In this document: in pieces, positions 3,336 to 21,878 of the stretch | How positions within the stretch are numbered: the first letter of the stretch is position 1 | How the letters are laid out: the number at the start of each line of letters is the position of its first letter | Assembly (NCBI GenBank): GCA_031316145.1 | Contig: JALDQZ010000004.1 | Span: 233,958 to 265,957, forward strand | Reading direction: 5' to 3' | Length of the DNA: 32,000 bases | Source of the DNA: Candidatus Brocadiaceae bacterium | GTDB taxonomy: Bacteria > Planctomycetota > Brocadiia > Brocadiales > Brocadiaceae | Translations under genes and position numbers: made by a program | The notes under the pieces: model-generated | What the model was told of the DNA's origin: nothing | What the model saw: the letters and a program-made list of their open reading frames with translations, nothing else | Databases searched by the model: none

Positions 3336-3647
3336 TTATTTCATGAGGGAATGAATCCGCTTTGTATCAAGGAGGGCCTTTTCCATTGCTACCAGCGGGG
3401 TGATCTCTATGTCGGTAAAAAACGGAAAGAGTGGTAGTTTGGAGACAATCTCTTCCATCTCCTCATGGGATTCCGCGTCGATGATGGCGGCCGCCCCCCG
3501 CCTTCCAGCCAGTTTTCCCCCTGCCAGAATCTTCCCTCGCCTCTGGAACCGGGAGAAATACTCCCATTCCTTAATCACATATCCCAGAAAATCCTTTACC
3601 GGCATCTGAGGCATCTGTTTTACCTCAACCTTTAAAAGATATAACAT
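3336..3647 (-). CDS. Muconolactone delta-isomerase-like small alpha+beta (ferredoxin-fold) protein
   Basis: 103 aa. It starts MLYLLKVEVK...MP...EWEY...RRGKILAGGKLAGRRGAAAIIDAESHEEMEEIVSKLPLFPFFTDIEITPL. This parallels the MLFxVxMxV...G...DVxSxxELHxLLxSLPLFPYMxIxVTPL pattern of muconolactone isomerases. Confidence 0.5.
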   Translation of the reverse strand: MLYLLKVEVKQMPQMPVKDFLGYVIKEWEYFSRFQRRGKILAGGKLAGRRGAAAIIDAESHEEMEEIVSKLPLFPFFTDIEITPLVAMEKALLDTKRIHSLMK

Positions 3648-3796
3648 AGATTTCTACCCTTCCTAACCTTGCCAAGCTAAGGACCAAAAAAGAATACATT
3701 TCTTCTCTGTACTGGTTCGATCAGGTTCTCAAATGAAAAACCCCTAATTCGAAAGAATCAGAAAAGACACAATCTGTGCCAAGAAAATCATAAGTC

Positions 3797-3829
3797 AACC
3801 CTGTCAGGGTTTTAAACCCTGACAGGGTT
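3797..3829. repeat. Tandem pair of the palindromic motif AACCCTG(T/A)CAGGGTT; able to form a perfect 15-bp stem with a 3-nt loop; possible bidirectional terminator downstream of fabG
   Basis: 3797-3811 AACCCTGTCAGGGTT and 3815-3829 AACCCTGACAGGGTT are exact reverse complements of each other, and each is also self-complementary. The pair lies between the fabG stop (3926) and the start of the next minus-strand gene (3647). There is no adjacent U-run, so it is not a canonical intrinsic terminator. Confidence 0.5.
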
Positions 3830-3925
3830 AATTATATGTCAAAGTGCTTTTTGCAGAAGGGTTATTTACTTGTGCCGGAGAGTCGGCACCATACCATACA
3901 GCAACAACCACGGGTCCCCTGTCCT

Positions 3926-4669
3926 CTACATGGCCAGACCGCCGTCCACCTTGATAACATTTCCGGTAATATATTTTGCGTCATCAGATAACAGGAATCT
4001 TGCAACCCTGGCAACCTCCTCGGGAGCGCCAAATCTTCTCACCGGGACCATTTCGACCATCTTGTCCTTATAATCCTGAGGCAAAACGGCCGTCATATCC
4101 GTTTCGATAAAACCACAGGCAATCGCGTTTACGGTAACTTTGGCCTTTCCTACTTCCTTCGCAAGCGCCTTGGTGAAACCGATCATACCCGCCTTTGAAG
4201 AAGAATAATTTACCTGCCCTGCCATACCCATAATACCACTCACGGAGGAAATGTTTACAATACTGCCTGACTTTTGTTTGATCATTTGCATAATGACCGC
4301 TTTGGAAAAATTGTAGACACTTTTCAGATTCGTATTCATCACATCGTCCCAATCTCCTTCGCTCATCGTGGCAAGCAATTTATCACGGGTAATCCCCGCA
4401 TTGTTTACCAGAAAGTCAACCCTGCCAAAGGTGTTTTTTACTTCTTTTACCATATTTTTGGCATCTTCGAAATTAGCAACATCTACTTGAAACGGAATGC
4501 CCTTTACCCCTAAAGACTCAATTTCTTTTACCAGTGCATCTGCCATATCACCGCTCTTGTTGTAATTGAAGGCAATGTTACAGCCGCTTTTCGCAAGCTC
4601 TAGCACAATTGCCTTGCCTATGCCCCGCGTACCGCCGGTAACAATGGCAACCTTATCCTTTAATTCCAT
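3926..4669 (-). CDS. fabG: 3-oxoacyl-[ACP] reductase (SDR family)
   Basis: 247 aa. It has the TGGTRGIGKAI cofactor motif, NNAG, the catalytic S...YSSSKAG (Y-x3-K) and the end-to-end FabG pattern. A strong AGGAGGA RBS lies upstream of the ATG at 4669. Confidence 0.9.
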   Translation of the reverse strand: MELKDKVAIVTGGTRGIGKAIVLELAKSGCNIAFNYNKSGDMADALVKEIESLGVKGIPFQVDVANFEDAKNMVKEVKNTFGRVDFLVNNAGITRDKLLATMSEGDWDDVMNTNLKSVYNFSKAVIMQMIKQKSGSIVNISSVSGIMGMAGQVNYSSSKAGMIGFTKALAKEVGKAKVTVNAIACGFIETDMTAVLPQDYKDKMVEMVPVRRFGAPEEVARVARFLLSDDAKYITGNVIKVDGGLAM

Positions 4670-4793
4670 TCGATATTCCTCCTGTTTCTGTGTTTCCCCT
4701 TTCGCACAAGTATTGTTTTGCTTGAACGCATAGTAAAGAAATGGCTTTTGAAATGCAAGGCAAAAACCGGTACGTATTTGGCGAAAAAACGTT

Positions 4794-5600
4794 TTATTCG
4801 CCTTCCTTCACCAGCTTTAACCGCATCATCTCAGCAAAGAGTCCAACCTCATATTCAATACCTTTGCGAATGTCATTTTCCATGGCAAAATTGATACACT
4901 TTTTCATCTCTTTGAGCACCCTCGCATCCCGTTCCAGAAGCACCTTTGCCATATCGACGGCATGATGTAACACTTCTTTATGAGGTGATACTTGGTTAAC
5001 GAGTCCCCACTCCAGGGCTGTTTCAGCTCGAATCATCTTGCCAAGAAATAACATTTCTTTCGCACGCGCGGCGCCGACAATACGAGGTAGACGTTGTGTC
5101 GCCCCCAAACCCGGAATAATGCCAAGTTCCGGTTTTGCCTCAGGCAGACTGAAAAAAGATATTTCCGATGCTATGCGTAAGTCACACAACATCGCAAGCT
5201 CCAATCCTGCGCCAATAGTCACTCCGTTAATAGCAGCAATCACCGGTTTTTTACAATTTTCTATTTCTATAAATATCTCCTGAGCACGATGAAAACGTTC
5301 ATAGTTTTTCTCAGCCACAAGACCGGAAATCCATTGACCGAAGAGCTCGTCACGGTCAGCGCCGTCACTGAAAACCCCCCTGAGCTTGCTAGCAATAATA
5401 ATGACACCGATTTTGTCATCGCCTTCATACTGATCCATCTTGTCATAGATAGCATCCAGAAGCCATGAACCAATGGAGTTCCTGGGACTCTTCTTCATAT
5501 ATATAACACCAATGGCCTTACCAGTATCAGCCATGATTTCTTCGTATTCAATGTGGTCATAACCAGAGTTATCACCACGGTTCATGCGTATATCTTTCAT
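4794..5600 (-). CDS. Enoyl-CoA hydratase/isomerase (crotonase) family protein
   Basis: Crotonase fold motifs are present: FSDGAD oxyanion segment, NGVTIGAGLELAMLCD, LPEAKPELGIIPGLGATQRL. Both canonical catalytic Glu positions appear retained. Start chosen at ATG 5600 (MKDIRMN...), which overlaps the upstream gene's TGA as ATGA. The track ORF extends to 5663 only by read-through into the upstream gene. Confidence 0.85.
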   Translation of the reverse strand: MKDIRMNRGDNSGYDHIEYEEIMADTGKAIGVIYMKKSPRNSIGSWLLDAIYDKMDQYEGDDKIGVIIIASKLRGVFSDGADRDELFGQWISGLVAEKNYERFHRAQEIFIEIENCKKPVIAAINGVTIGAGLELAMLCDLRIASEISFFSLPEAKPELGIIPGLGATQRLPRIVGAARAKEMLFLGKMIRAETALEWGLVNQVSPHKEVLHHAVDMAKVLLERDARVLKEMKKCINFAMENDIRKGIEYEVGLFAEMMRLKLVKEGE

Positions 5601-7639
5601 ATTTTCAATGCGGTTTGAAACCCCTCGTGAACTGCTTCCAGCGCCGTGCGCACCTTGACACAATCACCGATACAATACATCTCCTCAAATTTGCCCTCTA
5701 TCTGCCTTCGCAAATCTTCGTTCGGGCAATACCCCACGGCAATGATGATTGTATCCGCCTTAACCGTATGGTCCAGGCCGCCCTTTTCATAGACAACCTG
5801 GCTCATGGTTTTTCCATTTTCTTTATGGTTACTGATTACTTCTTTCACTTTTACCTCAGTAATTTCTTTTATTCCCGCGGATTTTAACTCGTCGAGAATA
5901 ATCCATCTTGTAGAAATGCCAAATCCACCACCAAGCTTCTTTTTCATTTCAAGAACGGTAATGTTTCTGTTTCCCTTTGTTGTAAGCTCCACGACATCCT
6001 GTGCATTGATAACGTCGTGTTTTAGAAGAAAACAGGCCACATCCGGAGTCATTGCCCCCTGTCTGGCAATATGTAAGGCAACCTCGCTCCCTATCGTACC
6101 CCCCCCAATTATGACCACGTCTTTACCAAGGTGTACTTTCCCTTCCAGTACTGAACAGGCAAGACATACGCTCTTTTCGTTCATTCCTGGCAGATCGAGC
6201 ATTATGGGATTACCGCCGGTAGCAACAACTACCGCATCGGGACGTTCTTTTTCCAGCGTATGCAAATCCACCTCTTTTCCCAATATGATATTCACCTTTA
6301 GCTTCGTTATCTGCCGCTCCAGATAGGAAATCATATGTTGTATTTCTTCGCGTCCCGGAGGAATAAAGGCAAAACGCAATTGTCCTCCCAGTTGATTATT
6401 CCTATCGTATAGCGTTACATTGTGTCCCCGTAACGTTAAAACACGTGCCGCTTCCATACCTGCTGGTCCTCCTCCTACGACCACAACCTTTTTTTGTTTG
6501 TCCGTTTTGGCTATTTTGTATTCCCCTTCATGTCCTGCCCTTGCGTTATAGGTACAGGATATCGACTTAAAACTCAATAGAGAGTCAAAACATCCCTGAT
6601 TGCAGGCAATACAAGACCTGATATCATCCAATTGTCCACCTTCATATTTCTTCGGTAACTCCGGGTCCGCAATAAGGGGTCTGCCAATGGACACCATATC
6701 CGCCTGTTCATTGTCTAAAATTTCTTCTGCCAACGTAAGGTCGTTAATGCGCACAGAAGCAAGCACCGGAACGTTTACCTGCGATCGGATTCTATCTGAT
6801 AAAAATACATATGCCATACGGGGAATGATCATCGACATGATGGGCGTCCTGCTTTCATGCCAGCCGGGAGAAACATTAAATGCGTCGGCGCCTGCCTGTT
6901 CCAATATTCTGGCAATTTCAAGACTCTCATCCAGTTCAAGCCCATCCTTCACGAAATCATTTCCTGAAAGCCTGAAGATAACCGGATAATCATCACCCGC
7001 CGCGTCCTTGATCGCTATAATTATTTCCCTGGCAAATCGAACCCTGTTTTCAAGGGTTCCCCCATATTCATCACTTCGTTTATTCGTTGCCGGCGAAAGG
7101 AACTGATTAATAAGGTAACCCATCCCTCCATGTAATTCCACCGCGTCAAACCCCGCCTTCTTTATCCTGACTGTGGCATTGACATATCCGTCAATAACCT
7201 TTTTTATCTCCGGAACCGTTAAGATATGGGGCTCCTGCTTTATGTTCTTGTGAGCCAGTGATGACGGTGCAATGGGCTGCATCTTTGTAAAAAAAGAGGA
7301 CGCGCTTCTTCCGCCATGAAGCAATTGCGCTGCAATACGTGTGTCATATTCGTGAACAGCGTCAGCAAGCCTTTTTAATTCCGGAATGAATTCATCCTTA
7401 TCCAATCCGATGATACTCTTCCATACCTTGCCACCCATTTGCGGATAGCACCCTCCAATAACAATGAGACCTACCCCCCCCTTTGCCCTTTCCACATAAA
7501 AATTAATAATACGATCGTTTATTGCCCCATCAGAAGTAAATCCCAAATCCATGGCGGACATGGAGATCCTGTTCTTTACGATCATTTTGCCAATCGTTAT
7601 GTGAGTAAATAATTTGCTCATAACTTTATTCTGGATCAC
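5597..7639 (-). CDS. 2,4-dienoyl-CoA reductase-like / enoate reductase-like flavoprotein (OYE TIM barrel + 4Fe-4S + FAD/NAD(P) domains)
   Basis: 680 aa. The N-terminal Old Yellow Enzyme-like barrel shows HGGMGYLINQFLSP and NKRSDEYGG. A Cys cluster CIACNQGC...C is present. Two Rossmann GxGxxG motifs follow (VVVVGGGPAGMEAA, VVIIGGGTIGSEVA). This is the FadH architecture. The start is GTG 7639, preceded by a TAAGGA SD; an alternative ATG lies at 7621. Confidence 0.85.
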   Translation of the reverse strand: MIQNKVMSKLFTHITIGKMIVKNRISMSAMDLGFTSDGAINDRIINFYVERAKGGVGLIVIGGCYPQMGGKVWKSIIGLDKDEFIPELKRLADAVHEYDTRIAAQLLHGGRSASSFFTKMQPIAPSSLAHKNIKQEPHILTVPEIKKVIDGYVNATVRIKKAGFDAVELHGGMGYLINQFLSPATNKRSDEYGGTLENRVRFAREIIIAIKDAAGDDYPVIFRLSGNDFVKDGLELDESLEIARILEQAGADAFNVSPGWHESRTPIMSMIIPRMAYVFLSDRIRSQVNVPVLASVRINDLTLAEEILDNEQADMVSIGRPLIADPELPKKYEGGQLDDIRSCIACNQGCFDSLLSFKSISCTYNARAGHEGEYKIAKTDKQKKVVVVGGGPAGMEAARVLTLRGHNVTLYDRNNQLGGQLRFAFIPPGREEIQHMISYLERQITKLKVNIILGKEVDLHTLEKERPDAVVVATGGNPIMLDLPGMNEKSVCLACSVLEGKVHLGKDVVIIGGGTIGSEVALHIARQGAMTPDVACFLLKHDVINAQDVVELTTKGNRNITVLEMKKKLGGGFGISTRWIILDELKSAGIKEITEVKVKEVISNHKENGKTMSQVVYEKGGLDHTVKADTIIIAVGYCPNEDLRRQIEGKFEEMYCIGDCVKVRTALEAVHEGFQTALKI

Positions 7640-7689
7640 TGATCCTTACCTACCATTCCCGGATTTACATTGGTATTTTGTTCTAATTC

Positions 7690-7890
7690 TCAGTTTTCAA
7701 ATGCGTTACGATTATAAGTTGCACATCTAAATTTGTCAAGCCTATCCCCCTCTTGAATGCGCATCCTCCGCCACTCTTGCAAAAAATCTACAAAAAAATC
7801 CATGTCGTTGCTTCTCGCCATTTTGTATAGATACTTGTGCGCAGAAGGCCGTAGTATACATTTACACCAACCACAATCACACAGTATCAC
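7690..7890 (-). CDS. Hypothetical 66-codon ORF (doubtful)
   Basis: Its GTG start overlaps the stop of the upstream Mut7-C gene (GTGA). No recognisable motif. It fills the gap between the Mut7-C and FadH-like genes on the same strand. Confidence 0.2.
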   Translation of the reverse strand: MILCDCGWCKCILRPSAHKYLYKMARSNDMDFFVDFLQEWRRMRIQEGDRLDKFRCATYNRNAFEN

Positions 7891-8690
7891 ATAAATCGAG
7901 TGACTCTTTCTTTATAGTCTCTATGAAACCGACGAACCTTTTCCAGACGAATTTGTATCCGATCATGATGAGAACCCTTCCAATAAATCCTGTTACATCC
8001 TTCACATAAAAAGAATTCATTGAAATAGGCCTTTGTCTTTGGTTCCAAACGATGGATAATTAAAGATTTATCAATTTTCCTTATTTTACCGTTGCAAATC
8101 ATGCACCGATAAAACGGTCTTATTTGGGAATAGAGATCATAGCGATCAAGCACTTCCTGGAGTTGCTCCTCAGAATTCATTGAACGGATACAATATCCAT
8201 GGACAATAACCTTTACGTATAACAGTCGCCGATCTCGTGTAACGATTATGCGTTTTTCCTCCAAGGACCGGCGAATAATTTCAGGGTCGTCATAATCATT
8301 TTCATAGACGACATCAAATCCAAGCATCCTGAGCATTTTGGCTAGCTTACCAAGATGAACATCGAGGATAAATGCATGCTTTTTCAGTGGTTCATCCCTA
8401 AGCTTCACTCTGGGAAAAATATCAGTAGAAACCTTCTCCGGATATACCGCTACCTGGTCACCGTGCTGCAATCGATACTCAAAAGACACAGAATGCCCAT
8501 TGACGACAATCAGGTCAACTTCAGTATGGGGTACTCCGATTGCTTCTATCGGATCTTTTATAGAAGGATTACCACGAAATTGATAGGAATAGTTCTTTTC
8601 TCTTTTCTCCGAAGGGAAAAAGTCGTTCAGTTTTTCATAAAAATGAAATTGTGCCACATTTTCATACGAACTCCATATTTTTTTCTTCAT
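7887..8690 (-). CDS. Mut7-C RNase domain (PIN-like, DUF82) protein with N-terminal ubiquitin-like beta-grasp domain and C-terminal zinc ribbon
   Basis: HTEVDLIVVNGHSVSFEYRLQHGDQVAVYP is ThiS/Ub-Mut7C-like. DVHLGKLAKMLRMLGFDV...IVTRDRRLL is the Mut7-C nuclease core. CMICNGKI...CEGCNRIYWKGSHHDRI is the zinc ribbon. ATG 8690 (MKKKIW) is preferred over the TTG at 8735. Confidence 0.75.
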   Translation of the reverse strand: MKKKIWSSYENVAQFHFYEKLNDFFPSEKREKNYSYQFRGNPSIKDPIEAIGVPHTEVDLIVVNGHSVSFEYRLQHGDQVAVYPEKVSTDIFPRVKLRDEPLKKHAFILDVHLGKLAKMLRMLGFDVVYENDYDDPEIIRRSLEEKRIIVTRDRRLLYVKVIVHGYCIRSMNSEEQLQEVLDRYDLYSQIRPFYRCMICNGKIRKIDKSLIIHRLEPKTKAYFNEFFLCEGCNRIYWKGSHHDRIQIRLEKVRRFHRDYKERVTRFM

Positions 8691-9127
8691 GATTATTAGG
8701 ATTATTCCGTACCAAAATAGCGTACTACAGGTCAATTCTCCGAAATACCGTATTTCCTACATTGAAACCCTTTAAAAAAACTCCTTTATGGCACTCTATC
8801 AGGATAAAGATACCGTGGACCAAATAGAATGGAGCTTAAAAAACCTCATGTTATTATTAAAATTATATGGTATAATGTTATTTCATATTTCAGCATTATC
8901 CAGTAAAATTTGTACGTAAGCATTCAGTTTCTTTATAGTTTTCACAACGTACCGTAGATGTGAATATTGGAAGGGAGGTGAGGATTCATAATTATAGCAA
9001 TGGTATGCTTAAGATGAGGGGATTTATTTTTTTCTAATTTTCAAACGCGAGTGTATGTGAGTACTTTTAGAAGAGAGGTTTAAAGTTTTAAAGGCAGGTA
9101 TTGTTATTTTTCTAAGGAGAATAAGAT

Positions 9128-9547
9128 ATGAAAAAGTATGTATTAGGTATTTGTTTTGCTCTGAGTGTTGCAATGGTTTCCTGGACCACGGTTTCCGCAG
9201 AACCTACAGATGGTACGTTTACCGTTGTAGGTGATAATACTTCCTTTATGGGGGCAACGGAAGGGAAACAATTACCGTTGCTTTGTGACGGTTTTGGCTA
9301 TGTATGGGATCTTGAAGTTGTAAGCGCCGGTCAATTGCAGGGTACGGTAGATACCGGTACTTGCGGAATTTATCGCGTAACTGGTACATTTGACGCCGTG
9401 AATGTCAGGTTAAGAGCTCAAGGCGGTGATGGTGTACGTTGCGTAAGTTTCACCTATACGGGAACACACTCAGGGACAAATGGTTCGGGTACCTGGACAA
9501 ATGATGCAGGTGGCTCGGGTACCTGGTCAGCGTCAAAGTGTAATTAA
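9128..9547 (+). CDS. Secreted hypothetical protein, Gly/Thr-rich, 4 Cys
   Basis: AAGGAGA RBS 7 nt upstream. Signal peptide MKKYVLGICFALSVAMVSWTTVSA|EP. The mature part is rich in G/T/V, with four Cys and a duplicated GSGTW motif near the C-terminus. No family recognised. Confidence 0.6.
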   Translation: MKKYVLGICFALSVAMVSWTTVSAEPTDGTFTVVGDNTSFMGATEGKQLPLLCDGFGYVWDLEVVSAGQLQGTVDTGTCGIYRVTGTFDAVNVRLRAQGGDGVRCVSFTYTGTHSGTNGSGTWTNDAGGSGTWSASKCN

Positions 9548-9679
9548 ACCATGAGCGTTTGATCCGGGTATCTTGCCGAACCAAACAGAGCAACGATACT
9601 GTGAAGGTGATGATGATCTCATAGAAGCACGTATGAACCTTTCAAGTGAACTCTGTTAAAGGTGTATATACTGTTTCAA

Positions 9680-9717
9680 GAAGGGGTGGCAAACGGTTTT
9701 GCTACCCCTTCTTTGTT
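9680..9717 (+). terminator. Rho-independent terminator
   Basis: GAAGGGGTGGCAAA-cggt-TTTGCTACCCCTTC forms a 14-bp stem with one G-U pair, followed by TTTGTT. It lies 133 nt after the stop of the 9128..9547 gene. Confidence 0.6.
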
Positions 9718-9813
9718 AAACAACATTGGTGTTGTAAGATTCGTTCCTTTACAGGAATTTTCTTCTCCCTTCTTTTTAAACGATTAAATAAGTACTACTA
9801 CTAAAGAGTAATC

Positions 9814-10095
9814 ATGCCAAGAAAAGAAATACATACGTTTTCGGAGAATGACATATCGAGGATATTTATTGCCAGAAATGTAAGAGAGGCAAAGTTTATT
9901 GAAAGGATTTTCGCTCAAAACAAAATAGACTATTCAATAGAGCTGGAATCTTACGTCTCAACAAGATTTTTTGGCAGCTCAAATTATATCGGAGCCACAT
10001 TTTACGTACGGACAGAAAAAAGTGCTTTTTGCAAGGAATTGCTTACCTCTCATGGTTTACATTCAGGGATCATAGATGAAGAAAATAGTGTATAA
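9814..10095 (+). CDS. Hypothetical protein (93 aa)
   Basis: The only long ORF in this interval. No motif that I can assign confidently, and the RBS is weak. Confidence 0.4.
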   Translation: MPRKEIHTFSENDISRIFIARNVREAKFIERIFAQNKIDYSIELESYVSTRFFGSSNYIGATFYVRTEKSAFCKELLTSHGLHSGIIDEENSV

Positions 10096-10186
10096 ACCAC
10101 CCGTTTGAAATACTGGAATGCCTGCAACTATTTTTTTCCGGTGTGCTTACCACAGTGAGTAGACCGTAACGATAACACGTTTATTT

Positions 10187-11425
10187 TTATTTATTGAACG
10201 TGCTAACAATCAGGCAGGAATTATTCCCATCATAATCCATGTTGTGGACCGCAGCATGATTAATTTCTTTTTTGAGGGGCTTTTCCAAGACGAGATTCAG
10301 ATTATTCTCTTGATCTTGTTCCTTGTGATTTATGATGTGAGGAATGGTACCGGTATTTATCGACATCACCGCAGAAATGATCTGGGCAGCGCCCGCAGTA
10401 CCATAACTCTCGCCCACATTCGATTTGATTGCAGAAATTGGGATATGAACAGCGTTTTCACCGTATAGGGATTGAATCGCCATGAATTCAATGTAGTCCT
10501 GTGTTTTACATCCATTAGCACCGGCGTTGATACAATCAATGTTTTCTTTTGTAAGCCCTGCATCTTCCAAGGCATAATGCATGGCTTTTTCCACGCGTCG
10601 TACCTTTTCTTCCATGGAATATTTTTTACCACCCGCAAAAGTATTGCCAAATCCTTTTACCTCTGCATAGATACGAGCTCCTCTGTCCAGGGCATGTTGC
10701 AGTTCTTCAAGGACAATAACTTGACTTCCTTCGGCCATTACAAAACCGTTTCTTTCCCTATCAAATGGCGCGCAAACCTCACTTGTTCCATCCAAACCGG
10801 ACAGTAAACCCCTCAGATAAAAAATCAGGTACAGGTCAATAGAGATTTGCTCCACGCCACCGGCCACCATAACCTTCGCCATACCACGCTTTATCATCCT
10901 ACAGGCATCCCCTATGGCATCTGTACTCGATGTAAAACCGGCAGAAAGCGTGCGCACAGGCCCCTTGATCTTAAAGGTGACTGATACATAATTGATGGAT
11001 GAGTTTAATGCTACATCGTAGCTGCACATCGGTGAAAGTTCCGACGGATTATTCCTGATAATTTCAAAAAAGTAATCTGTTGTCTCCGAAAAATTCCCCA
11101 ATGACGACCCAATCACCATTCCCATCTGATCAGCTAAGGATCCATCCTCCGGCGAAAGGTTTGCATCGTCCAGAGCCATTTTAGCCGCTGACCCCAGGAA
11201 CCGTGTTCCCTTATTCAGATATTTTAGGCCTTTTTTACCAAGGTGGGTTTCAACGGAAAGACCTCGTACCTCGCCACCCAATTTGCATGTATAGGGAGAA
11301 AGATCCAGGGAAGTCATTGGCGCAATGCCCGATTTTCCTTCTACAAGGTTGTCCCAGAATTCCTCTTTTGTTGACCCAAGAGGAGACACAACCCCCATAC
11401 CAGTAATAACAACTCTTTTTTTCAT
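10187..11425 (-). CDS. Beta-ketoacyl synthase-like protein lacking the Cys-His-His triad (chain-length-factor-like KS partner)
   Basis: 412 aa with a full KS fold (MKKRVVITGMGVVSPLG..., C-terminal thiolase half). When aligned by eye to the neighbouring KS, the active-site residues are replaced. ACSSG becomes AGFTSS (Cys to Phe164). INAHGTGT becomes INAGANGC (His to Gly). GHLMGAAS becomes GESYGTAG (His to Glu). Confidence 0.85.
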   Translation of the reverse strand: MKKRVVITGMGVVSPLGSTKEEFWDNLVEGKSGIAPMTSLDLSPYTCKLGGEVRGLSVETHLGKKGLKYLNKGTRFLGSAAKMALDDANLSPEDGSLADQMGMVIGSSLGNFSETTDYFFEIIRNNPSELSPMCSYDVALNSSINYVSVTFKIKGPVRTLSAGFTSSTDAIGDACRMIKRGMAKVMVAGGVEQISIDLYLIFYLRGLLSGLDGTSEVCAPFDRERNGFVMAEGSQVIVLEELQHALDRGARIYAEVKGFGNTFAGGKKYSMEEKVRRVEKAMHYALEDAGLTKENIDCINAGANGCKTQDYIEFMAIQSLYGENAVHIPISAIKSNVGESYGTAGAAQIISAVMSINTGTIPHIINHKEQDQENNLNLVLEKPLKKEINHAAVHNMDYDGNNSCLIVSTFNK

Positions 11426-11561
11426 AAAGCTTTTTTCATAATCAACGTTCGTATTCTCATTTTTGTCTTTATTCCACCATACCCCTTGTGCCCAATCTAG
11501 AATCTGGAATAAGCTTTTTTACGGGGAATTTTCTCAACGAAATTCTTCTGGCAAGCATCGA

Positions 11562-12773
11562 TCATTCCAGCTTAGTAAATATCGTCGTAGCATTATTGCC
11601 ACCAAAGGCAAACGAATTATTAACAATACTCCCTACCTTTGCTTCACGCGCCTTATTGGGTACAATGTCAAGATCACATTCCGAGTCAGGTGTTTCATAG
11701 TTTATTGTCGGAGGTATAATTCCATGTCTGAGCACCAAACAGCATATAATTGATTCCACGGCGCTCGCCGCACCCATAAGATGCCCAATCATTGATTTTG
11801 TCGAACTGCAGGGAATTTTACAGGCATATTCCCCGAAAACATGTTTTATAGCAAGGGTCTCTGTCTTATCATTATGCGGTGTACCTGTACCGTGCGCATT
11901 AATATAATCGATATCCGCGCAGGAAAGTCCAGCCATTTTCATGGCGTTGCTCATGCATTTTATTGCGCCTTCTCCTTTTGGATGCGGCGCTGTCATATGG
12001 AACCCATCGCAACTTAACCCATAACCAGCCATCTCCGCAATAATCTCCGCCCCGCGATTTTTCGCGAACTCATACCGTTCCATAATCAGTATTCCAGCCC
12101 CTTCTCCTATCATAAGTCCTTTGCGATTTTTATCAAAAGGCTGGCAACGGTCGGGGGCCAACGCCTTAAGGTTATGGAAGTGGGTAAATTCTGTTTGCGG
12201 AATCATGTCTCCTCCGCCAACCATGATCACATCCATCTTGTTTTCTGCAAGAAGGTCATAGGCCCAGGCAATGGCATGATTCCCTGAAGAACAGGCGTTG
12301 AGAGATACCATCGTCGGACCTTCAAAATCAAAATGCTGAGCTAATACGTTTGTAATGGAATTCGGAGGATAGACAGCCGCAACGATCGTATCAAACCCAT
12401 TATCCTTTTTTAAAGTATACCGCCTCAAACGTCTCTCAAAAGGTGTTAACTCTGCCGCAAGCGTACCAATGGTGATACCGAAGCGTTCTCTGTTAAACCC
12501 TTTTGCCTCTAATAAACCACTTTCCTGTAATGCCTCCCGAGCAGCATAATAAACATATTTATGGATGGTATTTTCTTTTATCTGATTTTCAAGCCCCACC
12601 TCCAAATCAAAATCCTTTACCTCACAAGAACGATGAACCTTATATTGAGAAGTATCAAAGGACTTCATTTCATTGGCGCCATCACGTCCACCGATAAATG
12701 ATTCCCAGCTTTTTCTTACACCTATTCCAACAGGTGTGACCAAACCCATACCGGTAATAACGACTTTCCGCAT
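11562..12773 (-). CDS. Beta-ketoacyl-[ACP] synthase (FabF/FabB family) with intact catalytic triad
   Basis: 403 aa. MRKVVITGMGLVTPVG, active-site LNACSSGNHA (Cys161), INAHGTGTPHND, KSMIGHLMGAASAVE and the NSFAFGGNNATTIF C-terminus. Confidence 0.9.
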   Translation of the reverse strand: MRKVVITGMGLVTPVGIGVRKSWESFIGGRDGANEMKSFDTSQYKVHRSCEVKDFDLEVGLENQIKENTIHKYVYYAAREALQESGLLEAKGFNRERFGITIGTLAAELTPFERRLRRYTLKKDNGFDTIVAAVYPPNSITNVLAQHFDFEGPTMVSLNACSSGNHAIAWAYDLLAENKMDVIMVGGGDMIPQTEFTHFHNLKALAPDRCQPFDKNRKGLMIGEGAGILIMERYEFAKNRGAEIIAEMAGYGLSCDGFHMTAPHPKGEGAIKCMSNAMKMAGLSCADIDYINAHGTGTPHNDKTETLAIKHVFGEYACKIPCSSTKSMIGHLMGAASAVESIICCLVLRHGIIPPTINYETPDSECDLDIVPNKAREAKVGSIVNNSFAFGGNNATTIFTKLE

Positions 12774-12832
12774 GATTTTATATCTTCAAAAGTATCATGT
12801 TAATTCACCAACGCGCCAGGAATGCATAAAAT

Positions 12833-12879
12833 AAGAGAGGCCAACTATTCGCCCGAAACGAATATGTTGACCTTCTCTT
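12833..12879 (-). terminator. Imperfect hairpin between the radical SAM gene and the KS gene (possible attenuator/terminator)
   Basis: The minus strand reads AAGAGAAGGTCAACATATTCG-tttcggg-CGAATAGTTGGCCTCTCTT followed by ATTTTAT. The stem has mismatches and bulges. Confidence 0.3.
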
Positions 12880-12948
12880 TTCTTGCGAGCAGCCCCGCGC
12901 ACTCACACCATGTAACTACTTTTCCTTATTTTTGAGAAAAGATAGATA

Positions 12949-14430
12949 TTACGTTGAGACCTCTATCGGCGTCAAGTCAGGTTTTTCCCCATGCTTTTTT
13001 GCATACTCGTAGCGCTGTAAAGCATCGTCATAATATCCGGAGGTCTGTAATTCTTTTAAATTCTGAATCAAGTGTTGATAGACACTCTGCCAATCCAGAT
13101 TTACCCTGAAAGCAAACATTGCAGCATTCATATTATTATTCAATTCATCCTTGGCGCTGTGAAATCTTTTTCGAAGTATCTCAGTGGAAAAGATCTTATC
13201 ATATAAATACTGAAAACCGTTGATAAGGTCCTGAAGTGACAAACTTTTCAATATATAGGTAAGATGATGCGACGTATAATATTTCCAGTCTTCGGGAAAA
13301 TTTGTCCTAAAAAGCCTGCCATCTCTCTTTAATCGGTTGTATAGAGGCGTATTGATAAAAGGACATAAGATGCCACACGTCATGATGTCAATGTGGGAAT
13401 TTAAAATAAAATCGGCAACCTTTTTAAACGTGTCTGGAGTATCGGCATCGTTTCCAAATACCATAGTACCCCATACCGCAAGTCCATGCTTCCGAATATT
13501 TGCAATAGCTTCAAAATAATTTTCAGTGGAAATTCGCAGGTTAACATTTTTATTCATCGTCTTAAGCGCTTCTTCTTCAATAGATTCGATACCGATCAAA
13601 ACTCCCACGCACCCGCTCTTTGCCATATACTCAAGAGTTTCATCGTCTTTATATATGTTAAGAGAGGTAAAACCAAACCAGTTCTGATAAATACCTCGTT
13701 CTACCATGCCTTTAAAAAGGTCTCTCACACGTTCGTTGGATTTTTTACTATGCCCGTAAAAATTCTCATCCGTCAAAATCAAACCACGATATTGCCCGTT
13801 AATGGATTCGAATTCGTCTAAGACGTCCTCTATCGGTCTTTCACGATATTTTCTCCCCTGGAACTGAGGTACTGAACAAAATTCACAACTGAACGGACAC
13901 CCGGCTGTTGTTATAATTCCGGAGTATCGATATTTATATTTATCCTTTAAAAACTTCCTATCAGACCGCAAGCCATGGTAAATATCCATAGAGGTAAGAC
14001 CGCCGTCATATCTCTTTTGGAGGCAACCATTTTCAAAATCATCAAGGATTTTTTCCCAAAGGGTCACCGCTTCCCTGATTACAACGCAATCAACATATTT
14101 TTCTACCTCTTCGGGAAAGCTCGTGGCATGAATACCCCCCATAATTACCGGAATCCCTCGTTTTTTACACGCAGCAGCAATCTTATATGCACGGTGGGCC
14201 TGATAACTAACGGAAGTAATACCAACCAGGTCAGCGCCTTCAAAAGTAATATCCCCGGTATTTTCATCTATGGCATATTCCTGTGTTTCATCTATAATAT
14301 CAACTTTCCAGTGTGCCGGAGTTAACGCTTTCAGATAACCCAGATTAACCGGCATTTGATTTAACACAGAAACGTTTTCCTCTCCAACATTGCCAATCGG
14401 ATGAGGATTAATAAGAACCAGTTTTTTCAT
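12949..14430 (-). CDS. B12-binding-domain radical SAM enzyme (class B rSAM)
   Basis: 493 aa. The N-terminal cobalamin-binding-like Rossmann segment reads DLVGITSVSYQAHRAYKIAAACKKRGIPVIMGGIHATSFPEE. It is followed by the radical SAM cluster motif CPFSCEFC (CxxxCxxC) and a GVLIGIES-type barrel strand. The ATG at 14430 overlaps the acpS stop (ATGA). Confidence 0.85.
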   Translation of the reverse strand: MKKLVLINPHPIGNVGEENVSVLNQMPVNLGYLKALTPAHWKVDIIDETQEYAIDENTGDITFEGADLVGITSVSYQAHRAYKIAAACKKRGIPVIMGGIHATSFPEEVEKYVDCVVIREAVTLWEKILDDFENGCLQKRYDGGLTSMDIYHGLRSDRKFLKDKYKYRYSGIITTAGCPFSCEFCSVPQFQGRKYRERPIEDVLDEFESINGQYRGLILTDENFYGHSKKSNERVRDLFKGMVERGIYQNWFGFTSLNIYKDDETLEYMAKSGCVGVLIGIESIEEEALKTMNKNVNLRISTENYFEAIANIRKHGLAVWGTMVFGNDADTPDTFKKVADFILNSHIDIMTCGILCPFINTPLYNRLKRDGRLFRTNFPEDWKYYTSHHLTYILKSLSLQDLINGFQYLYDKIFSTEILRKRFHSAKDELNNNMNAAMFAFRVNLDWQSVYQHLIQNLKELQTSGYYDDALQRYEYAKKHGEKPDLTPIEVST

Positions 14431-14864
14431 GTATAGACCTCTGCATTCTCAGTGGTTAATTTGTTTTCGCAAAATTTCTGCACCGCCTTGGGAATTAATA
14501 ATACCTGAGCAATAGCATATTCTTTACAATGAGATAAAGAGACCTTCGCATTGCCAATATTTTTTTTCTCCACTAATTCTTTCACCATCCCATAGAAATT
14601 CAAATATGGTTTCCCTTTTTCATTATTTAAAAGTTCTATATCCGTCCATTTCATGGCACCAACCCATCCGGTGCCTAATGCCTTAAACATGGCTTCCTTT
14701 GTGGCAAAACGCGCAGCATAATGCTGAAACCTGTTCTTCTTTGGGTTACAGTATTGTATTTCTTTTTCCGTATAGATTCTTTTTAAAAATGCCTCATTTG
14801 CAGAAAACAATCTTTCAATACGTTTTATTTCTATTATATCTATACCAATATCCATACGATGCAA
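14427..14864 (-). CDS. acpS: Holo-[ACP] synthase (4'-phosphopantetheinyl transferase, AcpS type)
   Basis: MDIGIDIIEIKRIERL..., FTEKEIQYC, ARFATKEAMFKALG and SLSHCKEYAIAQVLL match the AcpS pattern. The likely true start is ATG 14855 (MDIGID). The C-terminal ~15 aa extension overlaps the rSAM start. Confidence 0.8.
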   Translation of the reverse strand: MHRMDIGIDIIEIKRIERLFSANEAFLKRIYTEKEIQYCNPKKNRFQHYAARFATKEAMFKALGTGWVGAMKWTDIELLNNEKGKPYLNFYGMVKELVEKKNIGNAKVSLSHCKEYAIAQVLLIPKAVQKFCENKLTTENAEVYT

Positions 14865-15075: not shown

Positions 15076-16062
15076 TTAAGAACCAAGAAATCGTATAAAA
15101 TGCATTAAGAGTTTCTCATTGAAGCTCCCTTCCATCTCATTTTTCATCATTTTCAATGCAGTAAAAGGTTTTCTCGCATCGGAATAAGATCTTCTTGTCG
15201 TCAAGGCATCATACACATCCACAATACACGCAAGCTGCCCGTATTTATGGATATCCTCCCCTTGTAACCCGCGTGGATAACCTTTGCCACTGTATTTCTC
15301 ATGATGTTGTGCAACTGAATACAATGAACGAGTATCCAGACCACCAACATTTTCTAGAATTTCAACGCCAAATGCTACATGCTCTTTCATTTTTTCAAAC
15401 TCCTCTTCCGTGAGACTTCCTTCTTTATTAACTATTTCTGATACAATCCGGGTTTTCCCTACGTCATGCAGCATCATTCCAGTCCCTACGGAGTAGAGTT
15501 CATCAATAGAAAATCCCAGATATCTTGAGAATGCCAAACCTAAAACAGACACATTCACTGAATGTGTATAGGTATAATAATCATACGAAAGTACGTTTAT
15601 CAAAGAACGAGATGCATCCTTATTGTTTATAATAAACTCTACGGTATTTGAGATCAATTCCCTGGAATGCGCTATATTTTCACCAGAACGCGGATTTTTC
15701 AAAACATCCACCATAATATTTTTTGCTAGGTCATAGACAATACCTGCCTTTTCCTCGGTTTTCAACGTACCATCGTGAATTATCTTCTTTAAAGACGATT
15801 CTAAATACTGGAAAAATTTTTGGCAATCTTCCTTGCGTATATACAACCTTTCAACGTGTTCCTTTAACAATCTATCGATTTTGCTTGTATTAATAAGGGT
15901 TTCACCACTTACATAGAGTACAAACTGTTCCTTGTTGTTTACACAAAGTTTAAGAAAAATATCACACCCTACACAGGTATTACAACGTATGGTTTTCAAC
16001 AGTATGGGAATATAATTATCCGTAATGCTTACACTTATCTGCGTGTCTCTTTTATTCTTCAT
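15076..16062 (-). CDS. HD-GYP domain protein (probable c-di-GMP phosphodiesterase) with uncharacterised N-terminal domain
   Basis: Contains the HDVGK and HHEKYSGKGYPRGL motifs. The ~140-aa N-terminal region has no motif I recognise. Confidence 0.8.
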   Translation of the reverse strand: MKNKRDTQISVSITDNYIPILLKTIRCNTCVGCDIFLKLCVNNKEQFVLYVSGETLINTSKIDRLLKEHVERLYIRKEDCQKFFQYLESSLKKIIHDGTLKTEEKAGIVYDLAKNIMVDVLKNPRSGENIAHSRELISNTVEFIINNKDASRSLINVLSYDYYTYTHSVNVSVLGLAFSRYLGFSIDELYSVGTGMMLHDVGKTRIVSEIVNKEGSLTEEEFEKMKEHVAFGVEILENVGGLDTRSLYSVAQHHEKYSGKGYPRGLQGEDIHKYGQLACIVDVYDALTTRRSYSDARKPFTALKMMKNEMEGSFNEKLLMHFIRFLGS

Positions 16063-16465: not shown

Positions 16466-18880
16466 ATGATATTTGTTATCCTTTTTATAATTATTTCAAC
16501 AATAACAGGATTTTTACTTACGTATTTTCTTGCATCTTCGTACTCATTGTTTGAAAGGATTGCCTATGGTTTAGTTATTGGTCTGGGTCTTCATACCTGG
16601 GTTGTTTACCTTTTTTCATTTCTTTGGGGACTCACGTTCATAAGCATATTCATTACCATTGCTGTATCACTTGTGTTTTGTTCACTATTTACAACCGTAC
16701 AATGGAGTAGCTTTAAACGTGATGTCCTTTTTGAACTGAGACGCACAAAAAATGATTTCCTTTTAAACAAAAAATCCTGCTTTGTCCACATTGCAGTCTT
16801 TTCCTTCTTTACTACGATCTTTTACCGTCTGTTTTACAGAATAATACTCTGGAAAAATGATGGAATGTACATCGGACTGCCAAATAATTACGGTGATTTA
16901 CCCCTTCATTTGGGTTATATCACATCCTTTGTGTGGGGAAATAACATTCCCGCGCAAGATCCTTCGTTCGCAGGCGAAAAACTGAAGTATCCCATCCTCT
17001 CCGATTTTTTGTCCGCCGTATTTCTTACCATGGGCGCTGACTTCAAGCAAATACTCTTCATCCCGGGACTCTTGTTAAGCATTGGTTTTTGCTGTGTTCT
17101 CTATTACTTTACGTATCGTCTGACAAAAAGAAGGCTTGCGGCAATTGTTTCATTGTTTTTATTCTTTTTTTCCGGCGGGTTTGGCTTTTACTATATCATT
17201 CAGGACTTTACAAATTACTCACATGGTTTTTGGTCGTTCCTTACCCATTTACCACGAGACTATACAAAAATCACATCCTTTAATTACCACTGGATTACAC
17301 CATTAACATGCCTTACTATACCCCAGAGATCATTTCTTTTTGGATTTCCTTTTACGATTTTAATCTTTTCTTTGTTATACACAGGTATTGAAGAAAAAAA
17401 CCGGAGAGAATTTCTCTTTGCCGGTATCCTTGCCGGTGCGCTTCCTTTCCTTCATACCCATAGCTTCCTTGCCATGTTAATGGTTACCATACCCCTGGGC
17501 TTCATATTTTGGAACTGGAGGAATTGGCTTGCATTCTTTCTCCCCGCTTTTGTCCTCTCGTTTCCTCAGGTATATTGTCTTTCAAGCAACGTTCGTGGTG
17601 GAAGTTTTTTTGCATTACACACGGGATGGATGGCGGGAAAAGAAAATTTTTTTTGGTTTTGGTTAAAAAATACCGGTCTTTTCTGGTTCGCGGTCTTCGG
17701 TGGATTTGCAATTGTTTTTACCGCAAACAAAAAATTAACCAACCGGGTCCTGATGCGTACGGGACTATTCTCACTACCATTTTTATTCCTTTTTCTCTTA
17801 CCGAATTTTCTCCTTTTTGCTCCATGGGCATGGGATAATATAAAGATTTTCATTTATTGGTTTCTCGGTACCAGCCCGCTTGCGTCTCTCGCTCTAATTC
17901 GCCTATATGAGTACAAACGCCTTACAATTATCTCGAAAACATCCTTTTGTATTCTCATGCTTTCTTTAACCGCTGCGGGAGGAGTTGATATTTTCAAATA
18001 TGCCATTGTCCCTGTTAACGGATGGAAAGAATTTAGCCGTGAAGAAATAATGCTTGCAAAACGTATTTCAGAAGAAACCCCTGTAAACGCGATTTTTCTC
18101 AATGCTCCCATATTCAATCACCCTGTGTTTCTCTCCGGAAGGATATCATTGATGGGCTACATGGGCCACATATGGAGCCACGGCTACAAGGATGGTTCCG
18201 GTCGCGAGCAAGATATCAAAAAAATGCTCCGTGGTTCACCCGAAGCGCTATCGCTTATTAACACATATAAACCTCACTATGCGATCCTAGGTCCGCATGA
18301 AAAACGCGTCGGGGCAAAAAGAATATTTTTCGACAAAAATTTTACGTGTGTTATTACTACAAAAAAATATAGAATTTACGATCTTACTAAAAAGAACCAA
18401 TTTAGCACGCAAAAAAACGAAGGGTTTTCCGATAAGACTGAGCACCATTCTTTAAACCAAAATAATGGACTTCTCGTTTGTTATTATGATACGATATCTT
18501 GGGAAGGTGATCCCATATTTGAAGAAATTAACCCGTCTATTACTATTAATTATTCTGATGAAGATGAAAAACCGATCAATAGCCCTTTTAGTGTAATCTG
18601 GAAGGGATATATAGATGTTGATGTTTCCGGCAAGTATACATTCAGGCTGACCTCCGACGATGGCTCCTGGCTTTACATTGATAATACCATGGTGATAAAT
18701 AACGGCGGACATCATAGCAGGAAAACTCTCGAAGGAACCATAACCCTGAACAAGGGCAAACACACAATTATGGTTAAATATTTTGATGCCGGGGGAGGCG
18801 CCATTCTCAGTCTCTTATGGAAACCACCAAATGCCTCAGAATCAGAGATTCCTGCGCATGTTTTGTCTCCATCTCAATAA
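16466..18880 (+). CDS. Polytopic membrane protein (GT-C-like glycosyltransferase suspected) with C-terminal PA14 domain
   Basis: 804 aa. The first ~510 aa are a run of hydrophobic helices (judged by eye), with a loop motif NNYGDLPLHLGY. A soluble region follows, and the last ~137 aa are PA14-like. The GT-C assignment rests on architecture and on paralogy of the C-terminal module with the next gene. Confidence 0.65.
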   Translation: MIFVILFIIISTITGFLLTYFLASSYSLFERIAYGLVIGLGLHTWVVYLFSFLWGLTFISIFITIAVSLVFCSLFTTVQWSSFKRDVLFELRRTKNDFLLNKKSCFVHIAVFSFFTTIFYRLFYRIILWKNDGMYIGLPNNYGDLPLHLGYITSFVWGNNIPAQDPSFAGEKLKYPILSDFLSAVFLTMGADFKQILFIPGLLLSIGFCCVLYYFTYRLTKRRLAAIVSLFLFFFSGGFGFYYIIQDFTNYSHGFWSFLTHLPRDYTKITSFNYHWITPLTCLTIPQRSFLFGFPFTILIFSLLYTGIEEKNRREFLFAGILAGALPFLHTHSFLAMLMVTIPLGFIFWNWRNWLAFFLPAFVLSFPQVYCLSSNVRGGSFFALHTGWMAGKENFFWFWLKNTGLFWFAVFGGFAIVFTANKKLTNRVLMRTGLFSLPFLFLFLLPNFLLFAPWAWDNIKIFIYWFLGTSPLASLALIRLYEYKRLTIISKTSFCILMLSLTAAGGVDIFKYAIVPVNGWKEFSREEIMLAKRISEETPVNAIFLNAPIFNHPVFLSGRISLMGYMGHIWSHGYKDGSGREQDIKKMLRGSPEALSLINTYKPHYAILGPHEKRVGAKRIFFDKNFTCVITTKKYRIYDLTKKNQFSTQKNEGFSDKTEHHSLNQNNGLLVCYYDTISWEGDPIFEEINPSITINYSDEDEKPINSPFSVIWKGYIDVDVSGKYTFRLTSDDGSWLYIDNTMVINNGGHHSRKTLEGTITLNKGKHTIMVKYFDAGGGAILSLLWKPPNASESEIPAHVLSPSQ
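18467..18877 (+). other. PA14 domain-coding segment of the 16466..18880 gene
   Basis: GLLVCYYDTISWEGDPIF...PFSVIWKGYIDVDVSGKYTFRLTSDDGSWLYIDNTMVINNGGHHS...GKHTIMVKYFDAGGGAILSLLWKPP. This is the classic PA14 pattern: W-G-Y, tandem-Asp DDG segment, Y-I-D-N, and G-G-x-x-x-L-x-W. Confidence 0.8.
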
Positions 18881-21134: not shown

Positions 21135-21878
21135 TTATTGATAGTGCCCCTGATAATCTTTGATCCTTATATTGACCAGGTCCTTAAACATCTGTAAAGA
21201 GTGTTTTATTGGGCTAACTGTGCTTAACGCAGAATTTTCCCAACGAATGGGCACTTCTTTGATTTTATAATGATGTTTTTGCGCAAGATACAGGGCTTCA
21301 ACGTCAAAGGAAAAACCGTGAATCCTGCATCTGTTAAATACCTTTTTCGCAACATCCTTCTTGAATCCTTTAAACCCGCATTGCGTATCTATAATCCCTT
21401 TAAACAATAGTAAATTCACCATACCGTTAAAAATTTTCCCCATTTTTTCTCTATACCAGGGTTGACGAATGATAATATCAGCCCCTTTTTTACTTCTGGA
21501 CCCGATTACTACATCATAACCATTTATAAGATACAACAGACATTTATCAATTTCTTCAATTGGAGTTGAGAGGTCCGCATCGGTAAAAAAAATATATCTT
21601 CCCTCTGCCGATAACATGCCTCTTCTGACGGAGTACCCTTTTCCCATATTCCTCCTATTCGGGAAAACAACTATGTGTTCCTTTAAACGCATATAATCAT
21701 GTATCACCTGTAATGTATTATCCGTGGAACCATCATCTATAATGATAATTTCGTAGGAAAATTGTTGTTTGTCAAGATACTCGCAAATCTTCTCCAGGGT
21801 GGGTAGGACCCTCTTTTCTTCATTATAAGCAGGTATAATTAATGAAAGATAACAGGTGGTCAATGTTTGTATACCCAT
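21135..21878 (-). CDS. GT2 polyprenyl-phosphate glycosyltransferase (dolichyl-phosphate beta-glucosyl/mannosyltransferase-like)
   Basis: 247 aa. LSLIIPAYNEEKRV, IIIDDGSTDNT, FFTDADLSTP (the DxD region) and QCGFKGF. This matches the DPM1/ALG5/ArnC/GtrB-type soluble GT2. Its ATG shares one base with the gspF stop (TAATG at 21880-21876). Confidence 0.8.
   Translation of the reverse strand: MGIQTLTTCYLSLIIPAYNEEKRVLPTLEKICEYLDKQQFSYEIIIIDDGSTDNTLQVIHDYMRLKEHIVVFPNRRNMGKGYSVRRGMLSAEGRYIFFTDADLSTPIEEIDKCLLYLINGYDVVIGSRSKKGADIIIRQPWYREKMGKIFNGMVNLLLFKGIIDTQCGFKGFKKDVAKKVFNRCRIHGFSFDVEALYLAQKHHYKIKEVPIRWENSALSTVSPIKHSLQMFKDLVNIRIKDYQGHYQ

Follow-up and report, generated by a model that had tools for sequence, protein, structure and literature searches.

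Ladderane lipid synthesis in anammox bacteria is still unsolved, and the only characterised condensing enzyme is amxFabF2/amxFabFmut, a heterodimer from Brocadia fulgida of the kuste3605/3606 type, encoded in 'Cluster I' (PDB 9S5H/9S5I; bioRxiv 10.64898/2026.05.19.726425). A second pair of ketosynthase (KS) genes, kuste2804/kuste2805 of Kuenenia stuttgartiensis, has been known since 2009 as a candidate for ladderane biosynthesis (Rattray et al. 2009). Here we address a pair of this second type, an active KS gene followed by the gene of a homologue devoid of the catalytic triad. It lies in a stretch of 32,000 nucleotides (hereafter the window) of contig JALDQZ010000004.1 (positions 233,958 to 265,957), from the assembly GCA_031316145.1 of a Candidatus Brocadiaceae bacterium. 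By homology, this pair would be a second anammox condensing enzyme of the same build as the first, present in all anammox families sampled, and we consider it likely that it forms an obligate heterodimer.

The two subunits of the Cluster I enzyme co-purify; each of them is inactive alone and malonyl-acyl carrier protein (ACP) is decarboxylated only when both are together. Crystal structures and tunnel mutants show a heterodimer resembling those formed by a KS and a chain-length factor (CLF), and mutations of Phe135 and Val139 of amxFabFmut (numbered in the preprint as chain index + 1) shift the chain-length preference. The enzyme prefers short chains (C6-C8) and does not elongate past acetoacetyl-ACP in vitro; the preprint makes no mention of kuste2804/2805 (10.64898/2026.05.19.726425). 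In the Kuenenia locus, kuste2802 encodes the holo-ACP synthase AcpS, kuste2803 a cobalamin (B12)-binding radical SAM enzyme, kuste2804 a FabF and kuste2805 a 'non-canonical FabB' (Rattray et al. 2009; Javidpour et al. 2016), and about eight FabB/F paralogues are found in anammox genomes (Rattray et al. 2009).

Loss of the catalytic triad and conservation of the pair

Both genes of the window pair are carried by the minus strand. The first one (11562..12773), orthologue of kuste2804, encodes an active KS of 403 aa, and the second one (10187..11425), orthologue of kuste2805, encodes a triad-less homologue of 412 aa (hereafter the dead subunit); an intergenic spacer of 136 nt (11426..11561) separates them. 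The upstream protein matches the Pfam domains PF00109 and PF02801 end to end (E 1.8e-34 and 1.3e-39) and the downstream one likewise aligns in full with both ketoacyl-synthase domains, N- and C-terminal (E 9.3e-41 and 4.2e-24); a preliminary description of this DNA had noted that the overall fold motifs are retained. They share 28% identity over 407 columns (BLASTP, E 5e-50) and their homology is therefore far beyond chance. The upstream KS passes the cut-off of the NCBIfam subfamily PRK07314 (413.5 bits for 387) and stays below that of the FabF equivalog TIGR03150 (419.5 bits for 493.75), against which the downstream protein scores 321.8 bits; the latter is under the cut-offs of all NCBIfam KS models.

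The FabF-type Cys-His-His triad is intact in the upstream KS, where it consists of Cys161 (codon 12291-12293), His294 (11892-11894) and His331 (11781-11783); Lys326 and the gate Phe390 are also present, so that all FabF catalytic and gating residues are kept. In the downstream protein, these three positions are occupied by Phe164 (codon 10934-10936), Gly302 (10520-10522) and Glu339 (10409-10411), and only the Lys that precedes the second His is retained, as in the upstream KS (Lys334 and Lys326, respectively). Three independent alignments, i.e. pairwise BLASTP, HMMER against solved FabF structures and MAFFT with Bacillus subtilis FabF and 83 orthologues, agree on these replacements (the sequences of 9S5H and 4LS5 used in the alignments were rebuilt from the HMMER alignment output and miss a few terminal residues). 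They bear out the preliminary description, which had proposed the loss of all three residues, had numbered Cys161 and Phe164 exactly and had left room for a triad that was present but shifted: the triad is lost and there is no shift. This sequence observation is nevertheless a rediscovery, since the Phe and Glu substitutions were already tabulated in 2009. Indeed, the residues listed for Kuste2805, in Escherichia coli FabB numbering, are Phe163, Asn298, Asn300, Cys302, Lys328 and Glu333 (Rattray et al. 2009, Table 2). At the same positions, the window protein displays Phe, Gly, Asn, Cys, Lys and Glu; its Asn304, which occupies the Asn300 position, is Asn in 75 of the 83 orthologues.

The 120 best database relatives of the dead subunit are all 68–77% identical to it and originate from Candidatus Brocadia, Jettenia, Loosdrechtia and other Brocadiales. 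This range also covers the Kuenenia proteins (75% for Kuenenia hertensis); no species representative exceeds 77%, and the representatives of further 50%-identity clusters do not exceed 52%. A scan of one genome per GTDB species, using an alignment of eight query sequences, detected orthologues in about 75 Brocadiales species belonging to all known families, including Brocadia, Kuenenia, Jettenia, Wunengus, Loosdrechtia, Scalindua, Anammoxibacter, Subterrananammoxibius and basal groundwater lineages. Outside Brocadiales, the same scan found only a few distant relatives, on a Blastocatellia contig (46%) and on Thermodesulfobacteriota/'delta proteobacterium' contigs (about 40%). In a neighbour-joining tree, the window pair sits among the Brocadiaceae orthologues, beside Kuenenia, in both the active and the dead subtrees. 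Furthermore, the order AcpS, B12 radical SAM, active KS and dead KS (minus strand, 14864..10187) is that of kuste2802-2805 and is common to Brocadia, Loosdrechtia, Kuenenia, Jettenia and Scalindua. Judged from these similarities, orthology of the window pair with kuste2804/kuste2805 is close to certain.

The residues that replace the triad are not equally conserved. Among the 83 orthologues of the dead subunit, Phe is found at the Cys position in 82, and Lys and Glu at their respective positions in all. The preliminary description had remarked that this Phe departs from the Gln of classical CLFs; it proves to be a signature of the family. By contrast, the first His position evidently tolerates variation: it is Asn in 74 orthologues and His, Ser, Ala or Cys in others, the Gly being specific to the window, and the dead proteins of the wider family carry Asn, His, Ala, Ser, Cys, Gly or Thr. 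Three orthologues (L007, L009 and L066) have a His there, although Phe replaces their Cys and Glu their second His. In the active partners, the seven catalytic and gating positions (C/H/T/T/K/H/F) are invariant in 70 orthologues out of 70.

When only pairs with unsaturated dS are considered, the dead gene has a median dN/dS of 0.09 and the active gene one of 0.05; the dead gene is not a pseudogene. All three catalytic residues are gone, a gap of 136 nt precedes the gene and no obvious Shine-Dalgarno sequence was seen, which could evoke a decaying duplicate devoid of function. Such a decay is hardly conceivable for an intact frame of 412 codons that evolves with a dN/dS of about 0.09 and whose orthologues, in some 75 Brocadiales species, keep a near-invariant Phe and invariant Lys and Glu; these selection and conservation data refute the pseudogene reading.

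Conservation is also unevenly distributed along the dead subunit. A helix-loop-helix (about residues 102–149) and the helix that contacts it (189–210) show an entropy of 0.63, versus 1.25 elsewhere, and the most variable part is the C-terminal half around the former His sites. The pattern is reversed in the active subunit: the blocks that include the Cys, the His and the Lys/His have an entropy of 0.2–0.3, whereas the helix-loop-helix is average (1.02). The conservation pattern of the dead subunit thus fits a protein kept for the interface and the tunnel of its partner. Within the helix-loop-helix, the positions that line the tunnel in amxFabFmut are Ser135 in 79, Val138 in 79 and Ala139 in 83 of the 83 dead orthologues.

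The two genes are tightly linked. The active KS gene is immediately upstream of the dead KS gene in 57 of the 60 species loci with enough sequence. In Scalindua, the KS stop codon abuts the ATG of the dead KS (TAGATG) and, in the basal lineages, stop and start overlap (ATGA). The spacer therefore measures 0 or -4 nt in these groups; it reaches 13–334 nt in most Brocadiaceae, with a range starting from 0, and values above about 400 nt may stem from frameshifts or insertions in draft genomes. The gap of exactly 136 nt and the lack of translational coupling in the window, both pointed out earlier, hence correspond to a derived state of Brocadiaceae. Within this spacer, neither terminator-like or promoter-like sites nor matches to Rfam families were found, and its sequence is not conserved among Brocadiaceae beyond the coding flanks; on these grounds, the presence of a regulatory element was rejected.

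Both halves are also found as a single polypeptide. Among the 150 best representatives, all 27 proteins of about 800 aa begin with an active KS (C/H/T/K/H), which is followed by a C-terminal KS-like domain; the latter is devoid of Cys in 26 of them. The order of the domains is the order of the genes in the window and, in most of these fusions, the two halves resemble the active and the dead proteins of the window, respectively.

These data bear on the possibility that the dead protein is an independent enzyme with another chemistry or substrate, for example one that would link a short acyl chain to a ladderane unit made beforehand. Kuste3606, Kuste2805 and Kuste3348 were indeed proposed to differ in substrate and function (Rattray et al. 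2009). In principle, the strongly conserved Phe164, Asn304, Lys334 and Glu339 could mark a new active site, in which the Lys-Glu pair could serve acid/base chemistry. However, the Cys position lacks a nucleophile, the first His position varies freely and conservation is lowest in the C-terminal half, around the former active site. Furthermore, the paralogue amxFabFmut is inactive alone and active only in complex, and a unit of two subunits is favoured by the strict adjacency of the genes, their translational coupling and the fusions. We thus regard an independent enzyme as unlikely.

Relation to the amxFabF2/amxFabFmut heterodimer and proposed mechanism

The best PDB match of the upstream KS is 9s5h_B, i.e. 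amxFabF2 (E 1.3e-119, 46.8% identity), and that of the downstream protein is 9s5h_C, i.e. amxFabFmut (E 1.1e-83, 37.2% identity). As this homology to solved structures extends over the full length (E 1e-83), the fold of the dead subunit is settled. In the tree, which was built by neighbour-joining from distances only, the active partners and amxFabF2 form one clade (bootstrap 100), and another one (bootstrap 59) unites all the dead proteins with amxFabFmut and some 20 representatives of other 50%-identity clusters; both clades are outside the FabF of E. coli and B. subtilis. Throughout the second clade, the dead proteins retain the Lys and carry Glu in place of the second His, and most of them have Phe at the Cys position. 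At 47% and 37% identity and on separate branches of the tree, the window pair is placed by its sequences as a paralogue, not an orthologue, of amxFabF2/amxFabFmut (kuste3605/3606). The subunits of both anammox clusters group by kind, active with active and dead with dead, as would be expected if the pair had been duplicated as a unit. This suggests, with weak tree support, a single old duplication that gave rise to a KS and a dead KS, followed by duplication of the whole pair.

By analogy with this solved paralogue, the window pair would be an obligate KS/CLF-like heterodimer, and we hold this to be the probable explanation of the data. The active subunit would carry the sole Cys-His-His site and would perform both the decarboxylation of malonyl-ACP and the Claisen condensation. 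The dead subunit, which would not be acylated because Phe164 occupies the position of the nucleophile, would have been kept since its helix-loop-helix (about residues 102–149) would pack on the partner, close the acyl tunnel of the latter and set its size. The tunnel positions Phe135, Thr138 and Val139 of amxFabFmut are replaced in the window protein by Ser135, Val138 and Ala139, which are conserved in the family, and these residues lead us to predict a roomier tunnel; Ser, Val and Ala would provide a wider or longer acyl pocket and hence an acyl specificity unlike that of the Cluster I enzyme. The pair would serve for condensation in a cluster that is inherited vertically and encodes AcpS, the B12 radical SAM enzyme, the KS, the dead KS, a FadH-type reductase, a crotonase, FabG and a muconolactone isomerase (MIase)-fold protein. 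In the only study of heterologous expression, kuste2804 and kuste2805 were expressed in E. coli from separate synthetic operons and neither product was detected outside the insoluble fraction (PMC4790861, Tables 2 and 3), as would be expected if each needed the other to fold.

Alternatively, the dead protein could act as a homodimeric scaffold or a docking factor for carrier proteins, or could be the partner of another ketosynthase, such as amxFabF2 or the housekeeping FabF. The genes of the window are not translationally coupled, and cross-pairing is conceivable in genomes that hold about eight FabB/F paralogues. The amxFabFmut of Scalindua was moreover crystallised as a homodimer; in this crystal, however, the interface motif was disordered, which the authors explain by charge repulsion (10.64898/2026.05.19.726425). 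The neighbour relation kept in 57 of 60 species, genes that abut or overlap in many of them, and the grouping by kind of the active and dead subunits of both clusters, as if each pair had been duplicated together, also speak against such roles, which appear quite unlikely.

Several points nevertheless weigh against the obligate heterodimer or against parts of the mechanism proposed for it. The homodimer of Scalindua amxFabFmut means that dead subunits can self-associate in vitro (10.64898/2026.05.19.726425). Identity to the characterised pair is only 47% for the active and 37% for the dead subunit, the latter scores almost equally against B. subtilis FabF (251 versus 278 bits), and the monophyly of the dead proteins receives only 59% support in the distance tree. 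The net charge of the helix-loop-helix and the interacting helix is +2 in the active and -4 in the dead subunit of the window, and -3 in both subunits of 9S5H, taken as a positive control; as the charge asymmetry reported for 9S5H is not reproduced, this proxy is uninformative on the avoidance of homodimers. An AlphaFold2 model of the dead subunit built from 32 orthologues reached a mean pLDDT of 45.9 only, with residues 1–246 below 50, and only three aligned positions underlie the prediction for the tunnel. With regard to the cluster, no ACP gene was found between its edges in Scalindua, though AcpS is encoded there, and FadH- and crotonase-type enzymes usually act on CoA thioesters.

An eight-gene cluster and its surroundings

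The cluster of the window pair is a fatty-acid-synthase-like anammox cluster long proposed for ladderane lipid synthesis. The B12 radical SAM gene (12949..14430, minus strand, 493 aa; Pfam B12-binding, Radical_SAM and DUF4070; orthologue of kuste2803) is directly upstream of the KS pair and was found upstream in 57 of 60 species loci. Its product scores 78 bits against TIGR04072 'rSAM_ladder_B12', whose cut-off is 360, and is therefore not of the Cluster I type. The 3' end of the AcpS gene (14427..14864, minus strand, 145 aa; Pfam ACPS; TIGR00516, 98.5 bits for a cut-off of 59.8; orthologue of kuste2802) shares 4 nt with the start of the radical SAM gene, and AcpS is upstream of the pair in 47 of 56 species loci.

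On the other side of the pair, the minus strand encodes a FadH/Old-Yellow-Enzyme-type flavin/FeS enoate (2,4-dienoyl-CoA-type) reductase (5597..7639; Pfam Oxidored_FMN and Pyr_redox_2), a crotonase-family enoyl-CoA hydratase/dehydratase (4794..5663; Pfam ECH_1 from residue 48), a FabG-type 3-oxoacyl-ACP reductase (3926..4669; equivalog TIGR01830, 320.8 bits for 297.75; Pfam adh_short_C2) and a MIase-fold protein of 103 aa (3336..3647; Pfam MIase, E 6e-15, below the cut-off of TIGR03221). The listed TTG start of the crotonase gene overlaps the FadH gene and the true start is probably downstream of it.

The proteins of the window were compared with the open reading frames of 84 related loci. The FadH gene adjoins the dead KS gene in 34 of 64 species loci and is within the flank in six more; the crotonase gene after FadH and the position of FabG are conserved in orthologous clusters, and the MIase-fold gene ends the cluster in Scalindua, basal Brocadiales and the Blastocatellia contig. 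In Scalindua, basal Brocadiales and part of Brocadiaceae, the dead KS is directly followed by the FadH, crotonase, FabG and MIase-fold genes; loci with this contiguous cluster include L035, L037, L040, L047-L050, L058, L065 and L081. Furthermore, the eight genes from AcpS to the MIase-fold protein are flanked by unrelated genes in Scalindua. Genes of the kuste2802-2805 type hence make up the first four of a cluster of eight that is ancestral.

In the window, the eight genes are all present on the minus strand (14864..3336), and the cluster is split between the dead KS and FadH genes by three inserted genes (7887..10095). These encode a Mut7-C RNase-domain protein with an N-terminal ubiquitin-like Mut7-C domain (7887..8735, minus strand), a Gly/Thr-rich protein of 139 aa with a hydrophobic N-terminus (9128..9547, plus strand) and a protein of 93 aa without family match (9814..10095, plus strand).

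According to their predicted functions, the KS pair and the four downstream genes would cover condensation, ketoreduction, dehydration and enoyl/dienoyl reduction, i.e. a complete elongation cycle, to which the radical SAM enzyme is added. Within the searchable literature, no paper was found that links the FadH, crotonase, FabG and MIase-fold genes to the ladderane candidates or describes this extension of the kuste2802-2805-type genes. The product of this anammox module may be a part of the ladderane, a branched chain or something else. One could imagine that the pair condenses within a self-contained, anammox-ancestral module that assembles the strained ladderane part of the lipid (or another part modified by radical chemistry) step by step during elongation, that the small Ser, Val and Ala residues of the tunnel accommodate a bulky polycyclic chain, and that Cluster I makes only the short linear part; we regard this scenario as rather unlikely.

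Related modules are carried by the Blastocatellia and Thermodesulfobacteriota/delta contigs, and this type of module is therefore not exclusive to ladderane producers. The Blastocatellia/acidobacterial contig (L074, 6688..13319) harbours the KS, dead KS, FadH, crotonase, FabG and MIase-fold genes in the same order; upstream of them are found genes for an aspartate kinase, HU and an M50 peptidase, the radical SAM and AcpS genes being absent there. Four loci assigned to Thermodesulfobacteriota/'delta proteobacterium' (L077, 268..8737; L079, 827..12264; L080; L082) possess a KS, dead KS, crotonase and FabG core with three or four B12 radical SAM genes on its flanks; L079 adds a gene of the phytoene-desaturase family. 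Their gene content suggests a 'ladderane-like' cluster in organisms not known as ladderane makers. In another locus labelled Thermodesulfobacteriota (L060), the dead KS, FadH, crotonase, FabG and MIase-fold proteins are 55–76% identical to those of the window, as in the Scalindua loci; this contig may be a mis-binned Scalindua fragment.

The other genes of the window belong to various functions. Just upstream of AcpS, the minus strand encodes an HD/HD-GYP-type (HD_5) protein (15076..16062); Brocadia loci carry in a comparable position a PAS-HD_5 protein that is only 30–33% identical to it. Further away, a type II secretion/type IV pilus-like operon (21878..29958, minus strand) includes genes for a secretin, two pseudopilins with an N-methyl motif, GspK-, PilN-, GspM- and GspF-like proteins and a family 2 glycosyltransferase. 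Beside it, two genes encode large PA14-domain proteins (16466..18880 and 19093..21087, both on the plus strand), one of them with a PMT_2 glycosyltransferase domain. A tRNA gene (30200..30286, minus strand) is the sole Rfam match of the window at the gathering threshold.

Comparison with known systems

If the heterodimer model is true, there is a reason to co-express both proteins, which were produced separately and found insoluble in the one published attempt; the model would also provide three concrete tunnel positions to mutate and a set of eight genes to reconstitute.

Among the systems already known, kuste2802-2805 is the orthologous locus, with the same gene order, the same proteins and the same Phe/Asn/Cys/Lys/Glu signature of the dead subunit. 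The window belongs, however, to another lineage of Brocadiaceae and displays Gly in place of Asn at the first His position.

With amxFabF2/amxFabFmut, the window pair has in common the phylum, an active KS, a triad-less partner with Lys and with Glu at the second His position, and the association with a B12 radical SAM enzyme. The Cys position is nevertheless Val or Thr in amxFabFmut and Phe in the window protein, and none of the Cluster I neighbours amxACP, amxFabZ and the phytoene-desaturase homologue is found in the 32-kb window. The neighbours are instead AcpS, the FadH-type reductase, the crotonase, FabG and the MIase-fold protein, and the two radical SAM enzymes belong to different families.

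The adjacency of a catalytic KS and a Cys-less homologue is also that of the KS-alpha/KS-beta pairs of type II polyketide synthases (actinorhodin, 1TQY; ishigamide Iga11/Iga12, 6KXD), and the window pair would follow a similar heterodimer logic, with a dead subunit that shapes the acyl cavity. In the aromatic systems, classical CLFs carry at the Cys position a Gln that has reportedly been implicated in malonyl decarboxylation (work attributed to Bisang 1999 and Keatinge-Clay 2004). One may therefore ask whether the window pair comes from a classical type II polyketide or aryl-polyene cluster making a pigment or an aromatic compound, as the order of a KS and a Cys-less KS, the same overall logic and the presence of the actinorhodin KS/CLF (1tqy_A/B) and the ishigamide KS (6kxd_A) among the PDB matches could suggest. 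However, actinorhodin KS and CLF reach only 166 and 149 bits, versus 254–285 bits for FabF and 9S5H, and the Cys position holds Phe instead of Gln. Furthermore, the cluster encodes no dedicated ACP, cyclase, aromatase, polyketide tailoring or aryl-polyene functions, and the host is an anammox Brocadiales. Such an origin is very improbable, and the window pair is not a classical type II polyketide KS/CLF. Of the preliminary description, which had invoked both the KS/CLF logic and these polyketide and aryl-polyene systems, the former part stands as the best-supported reading, on account of the homology to 9S5H, conservation, synteny, coupling and fusions, and the latter does not.

Homodimeric FabF (KAS II) has the same fold and length as the window proteins. 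However, neither of these reaches the cut-off of the FabF equivalog, both belong to clades outside E. coli and B. subtilis FabF, and one of them is catalytically dead. Lastly, a KS-CLF didomain type is known from systems resembling polyunsaturated fatty acid synthases. The fused KS-CLF proteins of about 800 aa found here are single polypeptides at 25–43% identity, in which the Cys position is occupied by various residues (Q, G, Y, V, F and others).

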